Source: Escherichia phage KIT01
Sequence record: AP019521.1
Direction: 5' to 3' (one strand)
Length of the DNA: 64,000 bases
The notes under the pieces were generated by a model. That model saw only the letters and a list, made by a program, of their open reading frames with translations, was not told where the DNA came from and made no database searches. This document shows, piece by piece, positions 21,213 to 37,370 of this stretch; the stretch's first letter is position 1; each line of letters starts with the position of its first letter. The translations under genes were made by a program, and so were the position numbers.

Positions 21213-21289
21213 TATATTTTTCCATAGGCATCATTATATTTTACTCACGTTTTAAGATAGGGTAATTATATCACTTCATATTTACAGCG

Positions 21290-22183
21290 TTAAAGGACCA
21301 CGTCCTCATAACTTGGCATTTCGTGCTCAGAATGGATATGGGCACCGAAATAAATGAATTCAGCTAGACCAGGATGGAATACTAAACCAGGATTCTCATG
21401 ATAAATGATATGAGGTCTTGATTTCAGAATCTGATAATATTCAACCTTACTCGGTTTGAATTTAATAATCTCTACATCAGGACGATAGTCTTCACGCTTA
21501 AATGAATCATTCGGATCGGTGATATAAAGGCGAGAACCTCCAGCCGCAGCTTGGTCTACAACTCTTTCGAATTGATAGCATTTATCAGAGATACGGAATG
21601 GATGGAAAATACCATCAATTTTAATAGGCGCTAGACCTTCAGAGTAACGCTCAATTACTGCCGGATTAATTACCTTTTGGTCTACAAAAATCTTATCAGA
21701 GGACGCACCTCGTGACACCAGGACGTCTTTCTGGCATTGATTCAAGACTGTAGTATAAATCGAACGTTCAACTGAAGACACGTCGATATCAATGAACTCA
21801 TCGATGTAATAACGAGGAACTTCAGGGTCCATTGTAATGTTAAAGTTGAATTGTACAGTATGAGCACCATCATAACCTGTGATATCGGTTACCAATCCTG
21901 AGCAGTCATAGTATTCGATTAACGAATCAACAACGAACTCATTTTCAGACCAAAAATGTTTACGAGTTTCATAAGCATTTTCTTTATACCAAAGCGGTAC
22001 AAAATTCAGTTCAGGAAACAATTCAATACATTCTTTGATATCGCTCGAATTTCTAGGATAAGCCAGATAATCACCTGGGCAAGCACGGTTTAAATGGAGT
22101 TGAAAATTACCGTCCTTAAGGACGGCATATTCACCTGTTTCGTAACTACGCATACTGAAAATAGGAACGATAAACAAACTCAT
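21290..22183 (-). CDS. unrecognised protein at the beta-glucosyltransferase locus (candidate hmC-modifying transferase)
   Basis: 297 aa; lies between uvsX and gene 42 where T4 has beta-gt; no similarity to T4 beta-gt detected by eye. Confidence 0.55.
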   Translation of the reverse strand: MSLFIVPIFSMRSYETGEYAVLKDGNFQLHLNRACPGDYLAYPRNSSDIKECIELFPELNFVPLWYKENAYETRKHFWSENEFVVDSLIEYYDCSGLVTDITGYDGAHTVQFNFNITMDPEVPRYYIDEFIDIDVSSVERSIYTTVLNQCQKDVLVSRGASSDKIFVDQKVINPAVIERYSEGLAPIKIDGIFHPFRISDKCYQFERVVDQAAAGGSRLYITDPNDSFKREDYRPDVEIIKFKPSKVEYYQILKSRPHIIYHENPGLVFHPGLAEFIYFGAHIHSEHEMPSYEDVVL

Positions 22184-22878
22184 TTCAGGAATCCTCGAAC
22201 GTAGTCAAAATCACGTTCAAATACATGTGCACTAACCATAGTATGGGAATACGTACCCAGACCAACACCACACTGTTCAGCAATAAAGGCCATCAGTTTA
22301 CCCTGCAGATAGAAATCCAGCTGCATAACGATAGCACAGTTCTGTGAACGCATATGGGTATGTGCATAAAGACGTCCATCACGAATATAATATGTTACCG
22401 AATCGGTGCACGGATATTCTAAGGATTCGTCAGAATCAAGGAGGGCTTGGTCTTGTTCTTGGAGAATTTGGAACACAACTCGTCTCGAGTTAGGCTTTTC
22501 TTTAAGCTCTTTAAGTAAGGCTGGGAGTTGGGCCACAATTCGAGGTCCATAGAAAGTGTTGAAGTTTGCAGGCAATACGTCACTTTTCGGCTTATCAATG
22601 AACTTAGCAACATTAGGGTATTCCTTAAATGCTTCGGCGGCATCAGTACCGCCGGAAATCATAAACTTCCAGAAAGATTCGGCATAATCATAGTTGATAC
22701 GATTAATACGAGGGTCGGTGAATTTATAGGTGCTTGCATCCAGTACTTCTACCGAAGCAGAACCAATTTCATAACAACGGCCGATACGAGAATCAACTGC
22801 AAACTGTGGAGCTTCCAGGATTTCTTCGTTCATTTGCTTAAACGCGTTTTCAAAACTAACAGCGGTAATGTGTTTCAT
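22180..22878 (-). CDS. 42: dCMP hydroxymethylase (thymidylate synthase fold)
   Basis: 232 aa; PCTDSVTYYIRDGRL...MRSQN...QLDFY aligns with T4 gp42 CTNTVQYLIRD...MRSND...RNDY; synteny. Confidence 0.8.
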   Translation of the reverse strand: MKHITAVSFENAFKQMNEEILEAPQFAVDSRIGRCYEIGSASVEVLDASTYKFTDPRINRINYDYAESFWKFMISGGTDAAEAFKEYPNVAKFIDKPKSDVLPANFNTFYGPRIVAQLPALLKELKEKPNSRRVVFQILQEQDQALLDSDESLEYPCTDSVTYYIRDGRLYAHTHMRSQNCAIVMQLDFYLQGKLMAFIAEQCGVGLGTYSHTMVSAHVFERDFDYVRGFLK

Positions 22879-23411
22879 TTATTCACCTTATTTTCAATAT
22901 ATTCATTCAGACGTTTTAATTCTACCATATCGACGTTAAGCAAGTTATTATGCCCGTCATGGTTTAAAACTTTAAAAACATTTTTAAAACAGTCTTCATA
23001 TTTTTGGATAGTTAAGTTGAATTCATCTTTAGTCAGTTTAATGAGGTCATCTTCAAAGTCTTTATCCAACGGATTACGGGTTAAAATAATCTCAATGATA
23101 TTGAATTCTTTTTTGAAATCAATCCAATCTGCTAGTTCTACATAAGGGTCCATTTCACCACGAAGGAATCCCGAGTAAACAATATTACTAGGATACCCAC
23201 GGTCTAAGATGTAGACAAAATTAGGGTCTAAAAACTTATACAACGTCTCGACTAAAGCCTTGTCATTATCAGTCCCTAATGAAATGCATTTGCCATTAAT
23301 CTTTTTAGGGAAATCAATAAGACGATATTTCTTATCAGATAAAAGTGATTCAATTAAAGTAGACTTCCCGGAATTATCCGGGCCGTCGATAACAATGATT
23401 TTTGGTTTCAC
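22875..23411 (-). CDS. P-loop nucleoside/nucleotide kinase-like protein
   Basis: 178 aa; Walker A IIVIDGPDNSGKSTL at N-terminus; small kinase fold typical of dNK/TMK-like enzymes. Confidence 0.6.
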   Translation of the reverse strand: MKPKIIVIDGPDNSGKSTLIESLLSDKKYRLIDFPKKINGKCISLGTDNDKALVETLYKFLDPNFVYILDRGYPSNIVYSGFLRGEMDPYVELADWIDFKKEFNIIEIILTRNPLDKDFEDDLIKLTKDEFNLTIQKYEDCFKNVFKVLNHDGHNNLLNVDMVELKRLNEYIENKVNK

Positions 23412-23782
23412 GGATGATATGCCTTATAGGTTTCAAGAGTTCCTTCACGAACCATTTCTTTAAAGTGGTCAGGACGGATTGCTCGGTCATCGATGATAAA
23501 AGTATAACTCGGCTTATGTGTAAGCAGATTATGATATTTCAATCCGATCTTTTCAAGGTTCTTAACCAATGCAGGAACTACTTCAACCAAGATTCGACCA
23601 GGGCCGCATGAAGTCATGCCACGGGCAGTGAACAAGGTAATCTCATGACCTTCGTCATAAAGCTTATTAATCATGGACACCATTTCGGTGTCCGGTTTAA
23701 AGTTTTCGTAATCACGGTCATCTTGCCAGTGAGTAATGGTATTATCGATATCAAAACACAGATGCATTAAATTTTCTTCCAT
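23408..23782 (-). CDS. HAD-superfamily phosphatase-like protein
   Basis: 124 aa; motif I FDIDNTI (DxDxT), later TAR and IIDD motifs; alternative start at 23767. Confidence 0.55.
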   Translation of the reverse strand: MEENLMHLCFDIDNTITHWQDDRDYENFKPDTEMVSMINKLYDEGHEITLFTARGMTSCGPGRILVEVVPALVKNLEKIGLKYHNLLTHKPSYTFIIDDRAIRPDHFKEMVREGTLETYKAYHP

Positions 23783-25440
23783 TGTTTGTGGAGTTCAGTA
23801 GAACCTGTAGGTTTATATTTTACACCAGTTTCCTGGTCAAGCAAAACCCACTTATCAGGGCAACGAGTGATAATTTGAGCCGTAATAGGGTCACGAACTT
23901 CATCGACAAATTCACCTGTAATAAGCTTACGCTTACGAGGATGCCGCTTCAGCAGCACACTCAGTTGGTATAGACCGTTGTAATAAGCACCCAGAGCTTT
24001 CAGAGGATTATTCTTAAAGTAACCTGCCAGTGCCATCCAAATAACGGCAATCCAGAGCTTGTGCTTAAATGTACACATCGGAATATCATCTAAAGGCATA
24101 ACCTTTTCAATATCAACGAATACACGAGTTCCGTTACGAGTTAATCCACCCCATAGAGGGTCAGAGTTAAATTTGTCATAGCCATCGATAGAATAAAGCA
24201 CCTTAGCTTCGTCATAAATCGCAGGGCCTTTAGAACTATTACCAAAATAACCACGTGGGTCGATGATTTTAATATCACCTTCGTCCGACAGCATAATATT
24301 ACTGTAGTGCGGGTCACCATGAATAAGTTGGTATGGTTCTTTATGTTCAGACAGAATTTCTAGTGCATGACGGAGAAGTTTTTCAGGGTCGCCTACCTTG
24401 AAGTCGTTAACATGGGTAATGCCCTGTGGAGCAAAGCCTTCAATCAATCCAGCAATAGAAGCATTACGAATAAGGACCTTGTCCAATACTTCTTTCTTAA
24501 CATCAGAATACCATTGCTCATCGGATGGGTTATCGATAGTTCCGCCGAATGAACGCAATGCACTAATGACCTTATAAACCATGAGGACTTTGGTTTCTTT
24601 AGACATAAACCGGTAGGCATCTGCCATGGTACGACCAAAGATACGTTCCATTTTAATGAATTCGCCTGGAGCAAAGTCTACAATGCTAGGAACGAATTCA
24701 GAATCAATAGAATTATACCAATTGATTTCTTTAGATTGGATTTCTTTACCTAATTCGTTGGTAGGTACTTTAATAGCCAGATTCTCAGTGAATTCTAATT
24801 TATTAAATTCACGGTTAATTTCAGAATCTTCATGGGCCTTAGCCAGTTTCAATTTGTCACCGACATCAACCACAAAGTCCAGCTTACGTTCAGTCAAATG
24901 GACCATCGAATCCAGGTTGTCTGCAAGGTCTTCGCCATAATTAGAACGGTCGAAACCTGTCCAATTAGCCACCTGATACAAACCAACCACACCACCGCCA
25001 GTACCAATTTCACGCAAGTACGGTTCTTCAAATGTAAAACGACAGTCGGTCCCATAGGTATAACAGTAGTCGTTATCCCACTCAACTTTATGACCTTCAG
25101 GAATAATATCACACCAGTTAAACAAGACATTATGCCCGATGATATCTTCGGCAATGCAATCGATAGCATGAGCTGAACCATTGGCCACATCTACGTTACG
25201 GATAGTGAATTTAGGCTTATCACTGGTAATCATGTTAATGGATTTAATATAGCCTTTAACGAGGTCGTTAAATTTGCTGTGAATAACCAGAATAATTTCA
25301 TCTGATTGGTTACTATACAAATCATACAAATGTTTTAATACGGTATGTTGTTTGTAGTTAACCAATACCTTCGGGATTTCGTTAGTAATTGGATACAACC
25401 GTGAGCCAAGACCCGCGCCTAAAATAACAACCTTTTTCAT
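23767..25440 (-). CDS. bifunctional sugar-1-phosphate nucleotidyltransferase / APH-choline-kinase-like sugar kinase
   Basis: start set at MKKVV after GAGGAA SD; N-terminus VVILGAGLGSRLYPIT..IPKVLV = RmlA/GlmU signature; C-terminal HGDPHYSNIML...IIDPRGYFG = Brenner kinase motif. Confidence 0.7.
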   Translation of the reverse strand: MKKVVILGAGLGSRLYPITNEIPKVLVNYKQHTVLKHLYDLYSNQSDEIILVIHSKFNDLVKGYIKSINMITSDKPKFTIRNVDVANGSAHAIDCIAEDIIGHNVLFNWCDIIPEGHKVEWDNDYCYTYGTDCRFTFEEPYLREIGTGGGVVGLYQVANWTGFDRSNYGEDLADNLDSMVHLTERKLDFVVDVGDKLKLAKAHEDSEINREFNKLEFTENLAIKVPTNELGKEIQSKEINWYNSIDSEFVPSIVDFAPGEFIKMERIFGRTMADAYRFMSKETKVLMVYKVISALRSFGGTIDNPSDEQWYSDVKKEVLDKVLIRNASIAGLIEGFAPQGITHVNDFKVGDPEKLLRHALEILSEHKEPYQLIHGDPHYSNIMLSDEGDIKIIDPRGYFGNSSKGPAIYDEAKVLYSIDGYDKFNSDPLWGGLTRNGTRVFVDIEKVMPLDDIPMCTFKHKLWIAVIWMALAGYFKNNPLKALGAYYNGLYQLSVLLKRHPRKRKLITGEFVDEVRDPITAQIITRCPDKWVLLDQETGVKYKPTGSTELHKQWKKI

Positions 25441-25500
25441 TATCTGTTCCTCAAGTGAATGTAGGTACATTATACACTATTTTTAATAAATTGGTATTGC

Positions 25501-26001
25501 TTAAATCTTATCTTTACCGATTTCAATACACTGTTCTATTGCCGCCGGTACTTTGGTCTTGAGCTTATCGATTTGTTTCTTATAATCACGAGCTTTACCG
25601 AAGCTCTCGGTTTCGAGCATTTCGTAATAACGAGCCTCATGGATAGAAATCTGTAGATTGATATGGTTTACACACATCGCATACAGTTTCTGCTTTTTGT
25701 ACAAATCATCTTGGCGCTTCATTTCTGCCTGGTGTTTGGCTAGTACCGCTTCACGCTTGGACTCTTGTTCACGTTGGAATTCGATTTCCCTTTGAGCATA
25801 TTTTGCACAGTTATTACCGCATTGATTATTAGCTCGGGTATACACAAGTCCAGAACCAGCACGGAATTTCATTTCGCCATCGAATTGTTTCTGTTCAGCT
25901 GCGATACGAGCTTTACCAACTTCATCGGTCGAAACTGCATCACCATATTGGACCGCGCAACCTGATAGGAGCATACTCATTGCGATAATTAACTTTTTCA
26001 T
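25501..26001 (-). CDS. predicted lipoprotein
   Basis: 166 aa; signal peptide with lipobox LSGC; charged coiled region. Confidence 0.5.
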   Translation of the reverse strand: MKKLIIAMSMLLSGCAVQYGDAVSTDEVGKARIAAEQKQFDGEMKFRAGSGLVYTRANNQCGNNCAKYAQREIEFQREQESKREAVLAKHQAEMKRQDDLYKKQKLYAMCVNHINLQISIHEARYYEMLETESFGKARDYKKQIDKLKTKVPAAIEQCIEIGKDKI

Positions 26002-35500: not shown

Positions 35501-36519
35501 CGTGTAACCTCATTATAAAGTTGCGCGGCCATAGTCTTAAGGGCTTTAACATCATCTTCAGTGTGGCCGTCAGGAAGGGCATCGATATAATCATACATCA
35601 TATCCAAGAGGGACTTAACTTCATCTTCCTCTTCAGAATCATCGATATCAACACTGTTATCTACCTTAGACACAATACGTAAAGAATGGACAACCTTTTC
35701 AAGCTCTGATTCGAACTTAGTAAGTCCATCATCGATTTTATCGACTATAACACGAACTGCGATATTTGTAAAATCTTTGTAATCGATAGTCGCATTTGGA
35801 TAATGAATCTTACGGTGCCAACAGGTTTCATTGATGATGAAATCCATCTTATGAGTTTCTGTATCGAAAATCCAGAAGCCGCGAGGGTCATTCTCATCAC
35901 CTGCAGTTAGGGTCCAGGGCGTACCAATATACTTAACGTTTGCTGCATCAGAAATAGTGTGGAAGTGGCCTGACCAAACCTGCTTATATCTCTTAAGGAA
36001 ATCAGGTTCTAAACCATGGGATTTCATTCCTTTATAGAAATAGAAACCATTTAATTCCCAGTGACCTATACAGAAATCTGCCGTGGTATTTTTGATATGG
36101 TCCATGATATCAGTCGTGTTTTCTTCACACATCCATGGAATCAAATCAATTTCGGTGCCATCAAAATTAACAGTAGTAGGTTTCTCGTAAACAGTAAAAT
36201 TTTCATACTGAGTAAGAAGTTCAGAAACTGCATTAGGAGTTATGCTATTTTTAAACGTTGCATCATGGTTACCAATTATAACATGGACTTTAATACCTGC
36301 ATCGCTGATAATTTCCACCAGACCACGATTAAATTCCATACATTTATGGGTGATAGCCTTGCGTACATCGAACCAATCACCATATTGAATCCATGTATCA
36401 ATATTGTTTGCTTTAGAATATTCTACAGCCTGTTTAATACCGTTAAGCTGGATTTTCTGAATCCAAGGGTCATCGGCTTTTACTCCGATATGCAAATCAC
36501 CTATATTCAAAATTTTCAT
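35497..36519 (-). CDS. 47: recombination endonuclease subunit (Mre11/SbcD-like)
   Basis: 340 aa; phosphoesterase motifs GDLHIG, GNHD, GHWE matching T4 gp47. Confidence 0.9.
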   Translation of the reverse strand: MKILNIGDLHIGVKADDPWIQKIQLNGIKQAVEYSKANNIDTWIQYGDWFDVRKAITHKCMEFNRGLVEIISDAGIKVHVIIGNHDATFKNSITPNAVSELLTQYENFTVYEKPTTVNFDGTEIDLIPWMCEENTTDIMDHIKNTTADFCIGHWELNGFYFYKGMKSHGLEPDFLKRYKQVWSGHFHTISDAANVKYIGTPWTLTAGDENDPRGFWIFDTETHKMDFIINETCWHRKIHYPNATIDYKDFTNIAVRVIVDKIDDGLTKFESELEKVVHSLRIVSKVDNSVDIDDSEEEDEVKSLLDMMYDYIDALPDGHTEDDVKALKTMAAQLYNEVTR

Positions 36520-37370
36520 AATCTACCTTTATAATGTATTTCACTATTAAATTCTATCTCAGAAATCATAAAGCTTTTTATGCCGTCATTAGCCCAGATT
36601 TTCTTAGGTCTAGTAATTGTAACTGTAGGCTTAAAAATTTTATAAACCAAATTGTGATAATTACCATCCATAAAACCTTTAGCTAAAGCTATTTCTCTAA
36701 ATTTATACGGTGGCAAAAATCCAGTAGAAATCCAAAGCTCTTTTAATTCTTTTTGAATATCAGGGTCATATATCCCATCGGTCTTTTTCAAGTTTTTCTT
36801 ATGTTCATCGGTTAGAAAACTGCCAAGGACCCAAGATTCAGGTTGTTTTCCTTCTACAAATAATCCTTTATCAACGCCATTGTTATACCACTTCTTACCC
36901 TTATTATGACTAGATGCTTTATAATTAGGAGAACGACCTTCTACGTATCCTTCGGGGACTGTAGGTGCAAAGGTTTGTTCTAATGTAACAGGATTATAGG
37001 AATGAATATATCCTTTGGCATTATGAGAGCCATAAAGAGGGTGTTGCTCTTTAGGTAGCGAAAGCCCAAAGAATCCTTTAGGAGCGGCGACAGCCCTATT
37101 AAAGAATAGAGGATTTTGGGCTGCGTCAGTTCTTAACTGGTACATTCTTTCAGCTTCTAAAGCCTCTTCTCTTGTAGGGTGTTCGCTTACAATACACGAG
37201 TCGAATAATTCAGGATGCTCTAAAAGCTCATTTTTATATATTTCTTTATATGCTTTAGAAAGGACACTCCCGTGATACCCTTTCAAATGCTTCTCCAAAG
37301 TGGTAGACCCTATATAAAACGGTGGAAGCTTAGTCCCGGAATATATTGTCAGGTATGTGATGTATTTCAT
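36516..37370 (-). CDS. GIY-YIG homing endonuclease (Seg-like)
   Basis: 284 aa; N-terminal YITYLTIYSG...FYIGST, conserved R and E (EALEAER); sits where T4 has 47.1/alpha-gt. Confidence 0.7.
   Translation of the reverse strand: MKYITYLTIYSGTKLPPFYIGSTTLEKHLKGYHGSVLSKAYKEIYKNELLEHPELFDSCIVSEHPTREEALEAERMYQLRTDAAQNPLFFNRAVAAPKGFFGLSLPKEQHPLYGSHNAKGYIHSYNPVTLEQTFAPTVPEGYVEGRSPNYKASSHNKGKKWYNNGVDKGLFVEGKQPESWVLGSFLTDEHKKNLKKTDGIYDPDIQKELKELWISTGFLPPYKFREIALAKGFMDGNYHNLVYKIFKPTVTITRPKKIWANDGIKSFMISEIEFNSEIHYKGRL

Follow-up and report, generated by a model that had tools for sequence, protein, structure and literature searches.

We analysed a 64,000-nucleotide stretch of Escherichia phage KIT01 (AP019521.1; hereafter the window) with a focus on an open reading frame (ORF) of 297 aa located on the minus strand at 21290..22183. 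The ORF starts with ATG, its stop codon falls within these coordinates, and a GAGGA Shine-Dalgarno sequence is present 8 nt 5' of the start. The start codon shares 4 nt (ATGA) with the stop of the gene upstream, which encodes a 232-aa thymidylate synthase (ThyA)-like protein. The genes on this strand are arranged in the order DNA polymerase, imm, ORFs of 166, 567, 124, and 178 aa, the ThyA-like gene, the 297-aa gene, and uvsX; the T4 order at the same place is 42, beta-gt, segA, and uvsX. An earlier note on this DNA had placed the gene between uvsX and a gene-42-like gene, at the position of the T4 beta-glucosyltransferase gene (beta-gt), and the gene order confirms this. Its remark that the product is unlike T4 beta-gt also holds at the sequence level (BLASTP E=0.63; hhalign probability 0.2%). 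Based on the ORF itself, its orthologs, an AlphaFold2 model, Foldseek comparisons, and invariant residues, we describe the product here as a compact protein of predicted GT-B fold and as a putative arabinofuranosyltransferase that would initiate the glycosylation of 5-hydroxycytosine (5hoC) by adding the base-proximal sugar.

Over the 6 kb surrounding the gene, identity to QL01, WG01, Bp7, MX01, and IME08 is 95-97%, and a 97%-identical protein is encoded by JS98 and JS10; by these sequence matches (~97% nucleotide identity to QL01, WG01, and Bp7), the window is that of a Dhakavirus-type T4-like phage. Full-length homologs were found in 356 phage records, and homologs form 117 clusters at 90% identity; when 1.84 billion representative proteins (50% identity) were searched with a HMMER profile, only 242 family members were recovered. 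The ORF is a real, conserved gene, far beyond chance. In every listed row of GenBank and the other naming sources it is called 'hypothetical' or 'uncharacterised', its PHROG match is phrog_3891, 'unknown function' (E=1.6e-158), and it has no match in Pfam or NCBIfam. A scan of the cluster for promoters and terminators returned sites no more often than in shuffled sequence; with the scan overall at that level, a promoter-like TTAACG-17-TATAAT with an upstream TG (21265-21293, minus) begins at the stop codon of the 297-aa gene and would serve uvsX.

The protein is 69% identical to RB69 ORF047c (gp47) and 63% identical to ORF046c (gp46), the two halves together amounting to 298 aa; according to PMC13326640, a sequencing error had divided a single gene into these two ORFs. 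Full-length matches were also obtained to DLP1_077 (50% identity), which corresponds to DLP3 gp79, and Thanatos TH1_063 (51%), and the E values against RB69 gp46/gp47 and DLP-type gp79 range from 1e-48 to 9e-99. By sequence, the 297-aa protein is thus an ortholog of RB69 gp46:47, of the DLP3 gp79 type, and of Thanatos TH1_063. Besides its length, RB69 gp46:47 shares with it the place directly 3' of a 5-hydroxy-dCMP (5hodCMP) synthase gene and a predicted GT-B fold with MshA-type matches. Lee et al. (NAR 2026; PMC13326640) predict that RB69 gp46:47, DLP3 gp79, and TH1_063 are 'arabinosyltransferase 1', label DLP3 gp79 'alpha-arabinosyltransferase 1', and list Dhakaviruses among the phage groups with a syntenic cluster. 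The role of the family has therefore already been proposed in print (2025-2026), with Dhakaviruses named, and the gene is largely explained already rather than new. What the present analysis adds is the anatomy of the family, namely its invariant residues, its charge, and its fusions.

Predicted fold and family anatomy

An AlphaFold2 model of the 297-aa protein, built on a 61-sequence alignment, had a predicted local distance difference test (pLDDT) score of 95.4 and a predicted template modelling (pTM) score of 0.90, with alternating beta and alpha elements in two halves. Foldseek returned 105 PDB matches at E<=0.001, and the best 50 of these 105 were all GT-B proteins, with E ~1e-5, probability 1.00, and template modelling (TM) scores of 0.45-0.60 at ~10% identity. 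They include UDP-GlcNAc 2-epimerases, HepE, MshA, BshA, WsaF, and GT1 enzymes, and the MshA match (3c4q) is the one published for RB69 gp46:47 (PMC13326640). Among the viral models of BFVD, orthologs ranked best, followed by viral group-1 glycosyltransferases (GTs; GT1) and DNA alpha-GT proteins. As modelled, the protein has a GT-B fold that is ordinary apart from its unusual compactness, with two Rossmann-like domains enclosing a cleft, and not the novel fold that the earlier note had thought possible. Of the comparisons which that note had suggested, the one against glycosyltransferase folds gave these GT-B matches by Foldseek, and the one against the RB69 arabinosyltransferase was also run, the proper RB69 comparator being gp46:47 and not ORF003c (gp3).

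The best matches to transferase folds are the retaining bacterial GT4 enzymes MshA and BshA, and HepE (TM 0.55-0.60, probability 1.00); identity is ~10%, and the 297-aa protein is ~80-100 residues shorter. Its family has H270-x4-E275 instead of the EX7E motif of GT4 and is not recognised by PF00534 or PF13692. By sequence pattern, an Arg shortly after the first C-domain strand and a Glu on the helix that follows the fourth may correspond to donor-binding residues of GT4. The family is small and, at the level of sequence, does not merge into the large families GT4 and GT1. T4 beta-gt (GT63) has the same GT-B architecture in addition to the same slot, and its logic, a sugar placed onto a C5-linked hydroxyl of cytosine, is presumed to be alike; however, T4 beta-gt is a basic protein of 351 aa that uses UDP-glucose as donor and 5-hydroxymethylcytosine (hmC) as acceptor, whereas the window protein is acidic. 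RB69 gp3 (Aat in Bas46, where its deletion has been reported) and DLP3 gp76/gp77, the GT4-like enzymes for the second and third arabinose, share the pathway and the GT-B superfold with the 297-aa protein. Unlike it, they are ~366 aa long and detectable as GTs by hidden Markov models, and the family has no sequence similarity to RB69 gp3 (hhalign probability 0.24%). Action on DNA has been demonstrated for DLP3 gp76 and gp77 together (PMC13326640).

Invariant positions were taken from 61 family members and re-checked on 135 further representatives. Near-invariant residues of the N-terminal domain are R12, D24, Y66, R74, and Q151, and those of the C-terminal domain are P195-F196-R197, D200, Y203, T222, P224-N225, K/R246, H270, and E275. 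Placed on the predicted strands and helices, R197, K246, H270, and E275 are candidates for the GT-B sites that bind the nucleotide diphosphate and ribose.

The gene recurs in a trio with a kinase-like gene and a ThyA homolog that carries a characteristic Asn, here called ThyA(N) and described below. The ThyA(N)-GT-kinase trio is present in RB69, DLP1, Thanatos, Ac42, phiM9, and a 383-kb contig, and it extends well beyond the Straboviridae, for example, to the Pootjesviridae phage phiM9 and the 383-kb contig. In 7/7 other loci examined in which the GT gene is accompanied by an N-type ThyA homolog, the kinase-like gene adjoins the GT gene; in RB69, it lies 3' of the GT gene, next to uvsX, whereas in the window it lies 5' of the ThyA homolog. 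DLP1 has the same ThyA-GT-kinase order as many Acinetobacter phages.

In at least nine representatives, the GT and the kinase-like domain are joined in one protein, with the kinase domain C-terminal in eight (P0204, P0206, P0215, P0221, P0228, P0240, P0244, and P0252) and N-terminal in P0212. The fused domain was identified by a profile of 8 cluster kinases (E 6e-9 to 5.5e-5) and by TIGR00041 (E=6e-10), and it shares the motif EGFDRIGKD. One GT-kinase fusion, on a T4-like contig (L014:5412-7064), stands beside genes for a SIS isomerase, an NTP-transferase/kinase, a KdsC-like HAD protein, and a U32 protein. A second type of fusion places a KdsC/YrbI-type HAD phosphatase (TIGR01670, E=7e-10) at the N-terminus of the GT in at least eight representatives (P0131, P0142, P0148, P0154, P0162, P0171, P0192, and P0217). 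This HAD subfamily, which resembles KDO-8-P and KDN-9-P phosphatases, differs from the EcbF/BcbF-like phosphatase of the window, a difference which hints that the 5hoC of those phages bears other sugars. The invariant residues are kept in all fusions of both kinds, which consequently look active. As Rosetta-stone evidence drawn from sequence, the fusions tie the family, independently, to both the sugar-activation and the nucleotide branches.

The acceptor and the proposed reaction

The ThyA-like neighbour (22180..22878, minus; 232 aa) belongs to the thymidylate synthase superfamily (PF00303) and is predicted to be a flavin-dependent 5hodCMP synthase. It is 79% identical to RB69 gp48 and just 25% identical to T4 gp42, and it matches PDB entries 9iqc, 9iqu, and 9ir2 (E=1e-125), which we take to be structures of the HY126 enzyme. 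In the alignment at ThyA D169, the window protein reads MRSQN and T4 gp42 reads MRSND; E. coli ThyA reads QRSCD at this place, and the contrast between T4 and RB69 does not depend on the E. coli sequence. The Asp at the ThyA N177 position, which is associated with cytosine specificity, is kept in the window protein. The Asn of MRSQN is found in 7/7 other ThyA homologs that lie beside clear family members, PS2 being set apart (RB69, DLP1, Thanatos, Ac42, phiM9, Atu_ph04, and the 383-kb contig), and MRSND occurs in T4 and PS2. RB69 gp48 and DLP3 gp80 have been shown experimentally to make 5hodCMP, and the authors give Asn at position 169 (E. coli ThyA numbering) as a predictor of 5hodCMP synthases (PMC13326640).

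By its affinity to gp48 and its Asn signature, the product of the 232-aa gene, which GenBank labels thymidylate synthase or dCMP hydroxymethylase, is not a dCMP hydroxymethylase of the T4 type. Since this neighbour is 79% identical to the proven RB69 gp48 and carries the Asn signature, the acceptor would be 5hoC and not hmC, and by the same sequence evidence Dhakavirus DNA is probably 5hoC-based. The earlier note had proposed the 297-aa protein as the transferase that moves the product of the adjacent sugar-activation genes onto hmC; we retain it as the best candidate user of that sugar nucleotide, and the only one in the window, and replace the acceptor, the neighbour being of the 5hodCMP synthase type.

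Two other loci bear on the ThyA partner. In the 383-kb contig (GCA_040384225.1), a Flavodoxin_2-family gene (L008:4426-4932) lies just 5' of the ThyA(N)-GT-kinase trio and fits a supply of flavin to a flavin-dependent hydroxylase. Serratia phage PS2 encodes a remote family member, gp042 (L011:5001-5927; 21% identity, hhalign probability 99.1%), whose gene is flanked by that of a T4-type (Asp) gp42 and by those for beta-alpha-gt and beta-gt. Its N-domain is recognisable, but the C-domain invariants PFR, D200, K246, and H270 are not conserved. In this hmC phage, gp042 may be a paralog that has degenerated or taken on another role.

We consider it likely that the 297-aa protein is the initiating UDP-arabinofuranose (UDP-Araf):5hoC arabinofuranosyltransferase, which would place the first, base-proximal D-arabinofuranose onto the 5-hydroxyl. 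Starting from the observed orthology, fold, neighbourhood, and ThyA type, we infer the donor, acceptor, stage, and product as follows. The 232-aa ThyA homolog would, by orthology, hydroxylate dCMP to 5hodCMP, which the P-loop kinase-like protein, along with host enzymes, would phosphorylate further until replication can use it as the triphosphate. Arabinose-5-phosphate would be turned into UDP-Araf by the 124-aa HAD phosphatase and the 567-aa kinase/nucleotidyltransferase. The 297-aa protein would bind UDP-Araf in its C-terminal Rossmann domain, with PFR197, D200, K246, H270, and E275 as candidate residues, and 5hoC in its highly conserved N-terminal domain (R12, D24, Y66, R74, and Q151), forming a C5-O-arabinoside. 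By analogy with every characterised phage DNA glycosyltransferase, we assume that the 5hoC acceptor is part of the DNA when the sugar is added; this default, a T4-like transfer after replication, seems more likely than a reaction at the nucleotide level.

Several results weigh against this assignment. On the computational side, epimerases, which are GT-B proteins and not transferases, are among the top fold matches. None of the 61 family members matched a GT family in Pfam at E<=10 or in NCBIfam, and phmmer and profile searches of PDB sequences likewise gave no GT family; the GT status of the family is thus read from its predicted fold. The family is also acidic throughout (median pI 5.2; pI, isoelectric point), and the window protein has a pI of 4.9 and a net charge of -18. 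On the experimental side, no transferase activity is reported for any family member in the searchable literature, the HY126 work of He et al. 2026 being outside that scope, and we found no report there on Dhakavirus DNA chemistry. Single DLP3 GTs did not arabinosylate 5hoC-DNA with UDP-Araf or UDP-arabinopyranose (UDP-Arap; data not shown in PMC13326640), and TH1_063 failed to glycosylate plasmid DNA, dCMP, dCTP, or cytosine and was reported instead as a maker of UDP-xylose (PMC12838424). The transfer test of TH1_063 is weak, as its acceptors had no 5-OH, and its negative outcome does not bear on transferase function.

Stage of the first sugar and other readings

The alternative that survives best, although we hold it to be unlikely, concerns the stage at which the sugar is added. 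Ahead of replication, the 297-aa protein would then arabinosylate 5hodCMP, or the corresponding di- or triphosphate, as a free nucleotide; the kinase-like partner, adjacent or fused, would phosphorylate arabinosyl-5hodCMP, and the polymerase would incorporate the glycosylated dNTP. Such a route is favoured by the retention of the trio, with overlapping genes, across distant phages and by the GT-kinase fusions with all their catalytic-looking invariants; however, a fusion may reflect mere co-expression or tethering to the dNTP-synthesis or replication complex. The acidic charge of the whole family also points that way, T4 beta-gt having a pI of 9.05. As an argument against DNA binding, charge is weakened by DLP1_075 and DLP1_074, the counterparts of the DNA-acting DLP3 gp77 and gp76, which are not basic either (pI 5.7 and 7.2). 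RB69 has the cluster kinase in addition to a T4 gp1-type dNMP kinase, which suggests a special substrate, and in the face of the missing activity on 5hoC-DNA the authors leave mononucleotide and DNA undistinguished for the first sugar (Table 1 and text of PMC13326640). On the other side, all characterised phage DNA glycosylations are post-replicative, including the third arabinose of DLP3, which was shown on DNA (PMC13326640), and T4 beta-gt adjoins gene 42 too, yet acts on DNA.

A pre-replicative first sugar, if true, would explain both the extra kinase in 5hoC clusters and a near-lethal phenotype in Thanatos. It would also be, to our knowledge, the first natural pre-replicative DNA glycosylation. 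Glucosyltransferase mutants of T4 are viable on permissive hosts. In contrast, knockout of the sugar-activating TH1_060 nearly abolishes the propagation of Thanatos (PMC12838424).

We regard it as very improbable that the 297-aa protein is instead a UDP-pentose pyrophosphorylase (sugar-1-phosphate uridylyltransferase), which would supply the sugar and not transfer it. This reading comes from an assay in which His-tagged TH1_063 was incubated with xylose-1-phosphate and UTP and yielded a compound that matched UDP-xylose in tandem mass spectrometry (MS/MS; PMC12838424); a reaction without enzyme was the only control described, and a co-purifying E. coli uridylyltransferase is possible. The published activity conflicts with the predicted fold, which is GT-B and not the GT-A-like fold of nucleotidyltransferases. 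The NTP_transferase signatures PF00483 and PF12804 are lacking from the 297-aa protein, and both are found in the 567-aa neighbour, for whose HY126 ortholog, AfhE, PMC13326640 cites a role as UDP-arabinose pyrophosphorylase. In addition, phages with a single GT-like gene would then have no transferase.

Least credible of all is a non-transferase GT-B protein of the UDP-sugar 2-epimerase type (e.g., one interconverting ribo/arabino C2 epimers of UDP-pentose) or an inert partner: most of the top 10 Foldseek PDB matches are non-hydrolysing UDP-GlcNAc 2-epimerases and the FoldSeek match of the syntenic RL38J1 gp215 is a 2-epimerase (PMC13326640), but TM scores of 0.45-0.55 to epimerases are no better than those to MshA, BshA, and HepE, the arabinose-5-phosphate route requires no epimerase as described in PMC13326640, the transferase would be missing, and the very strong conservation in both domains argues against an inert protein.

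The sugar cluster and the predicted Dhakavirus modification

The genes upstream of the ThyA homolog provide the remaining steps predicted for an initiating arabinofuranosyltransferase. The first (22875..23411, minus) encodes a 178-aa P-loop protein resembling dNMP and thymidylate kinases (weak Pfam and NCBIfam kinase matches; PHROG 761), a homolog of RB69 gp45 (37% identity) that is predicted to phosphorylate 5hodCMP, either as such or arabinosylated. Next is a 124-aa HAD phosphatase (23408..23782, minus; TIGR01689, E=5e-14), 63% identical to RB69 gp51 and homologous to HY126 AfhF, which is predicted to convert Araf-1,5-bisphosphate to Araf-1-phosphate. The third gene (23767..25470, minus) encodes a 567-aa protein with an N-terminal sugar-1-phosphate nucleotidyltransferase (PF00483, E=3e-8) and a C-terminal APH-like kinase (PF01636, E=1.3e-5), a predicted maker of UDP-Araf; this homolog of RB69 gp52:53 and HY126 AfhE has 41-44% identity to RB69 gp52/gp53 and 44% to TH1_060. 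PMC13326640 cites HY126 AfhE and AfhF for the conversion of Araf-5-P via Araf-1,5-P2 and Araf-1-P to UDP-Araf.

Using tblastn, we compared all RB69 module proteins with the 64-kb window. Homologs of RB69 gp45, gp51, gp52, gp53, and gp54 are present; RB69 gp49, gp50 (U32), gp55 (arabinose-5-phosphate isomerase), and the second transferase gp3 ('Aat'), all of which RB69 has in addition, as well as T4 beta-gt, had no match in the window. By sequence content, the cluster resembles a minimal module of five genes for arabinosylation. With no phage isomerase encoded in the window, arabinose-5-phosphate presumably comes from the host enzymes KdsD/GutQ, which provide this compound for KDO synthesis in E. 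coli. The 166-aa ORF between the 567-aa gene and imm (25501-26001, minus; phrog_1754, unknown function) was not matched by any RB69 module protein in this tblastn comparison, and its N-terminus looks like a lipoprotein signal peptide (MKKLIIAMSMLLSGC).

Genes of the Peptidase-U32 family recur in 5hoC clusters (E 3e-10 to 7e-11), at L002:5493-6662 (RB69 gp50), L006:26927-28063 (Thanatos TH1_065), L009:7049-8125, and L014:10053-11153, the last of which encodes a match to RB69 gp50 (E=9e-111). Near the GT gene of L009 and that of L014, both of which are metagenomic loci, no ThyA homolog was seen. Proteins of the U32 family include the O2-independent hydroxylases RlhA (ho5C in rRNA), TrhP, and UbiU/V, and those of the phage clusters may be an alternative, anaerobic cytosine-5 hydroxylase.

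T4-like coliphages have three slots for DNA glycosyltransferase genes, all of which are inside the window, and only the 297-aa ORF qualifies among them; a second, hidden DNA glycosyltransferase was accordingly rejected. The alpha-gt slot (36516..37370, minus), between gene 47 and a-gt.2/55, holds an HNH homing endonuclease of 284 aa (phrog_10820, E=8e-83), the version annotated in QL01 being shorter (205 aa), and the rIIA-39 slot holds a 118-aa DUF7367 ORF. The remaining large ORFs without a known role are T4 nrdC.x-type DUFs or lack a Pfam match. Matches to RB69 gp3 in E. coli phages are all at least 95% identical, and by sequence we read them as Mosigvirus and not Dhakavirus.

These gene contents point to the number of sugars. 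DLP-type phages, which carry tri-arabinosyl-5hoC, have two further GT4-like transferases, unlike the window. The best model for a single-sugar phage is Thanatos, where the 300-aa TH1_063 occupies the same place after the ThyA homolog (L006:25460-26362) and is the only GT-like gene of the cluster; the Thanatos cluster also holds a U32 gene, which the window does not. With this one GT of the family, Thanatos is described as mono-arabinosylated (PMC13326640). As the window has no second DNA glycosyltransferase, we predict mono-arabinosyl-5hoC DNA, and by analogy with Thanatos this is probably the modification of Dhakaviruses.

Arabinosyl-5hoC is a recently recognised hypermodification of phage DNA that is effective against some CRISPR systems, the glycosylase Brig1, and restriction enzymes, and the 297-aa gene is the predicted entry step of its glycosylation. 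The pattern of fusions, charge, and synteny in the family makes the question of whether the first sugar is added to DNA or to a nucleotide directly testable. The GenBank labels of the cluster (thymidylate synthase, dCMP hydroxymethylase, and hypothetical) are misleading. Dhakavirus phages serve in phage-therapy work. Their DNA probably carries mono-arabinosyl-5hoC in place of hmC, and in how sensitive they are to CRISPR and to type IV restriction they should resemble Thanatos or an Aat-deleted Mosigvirus.

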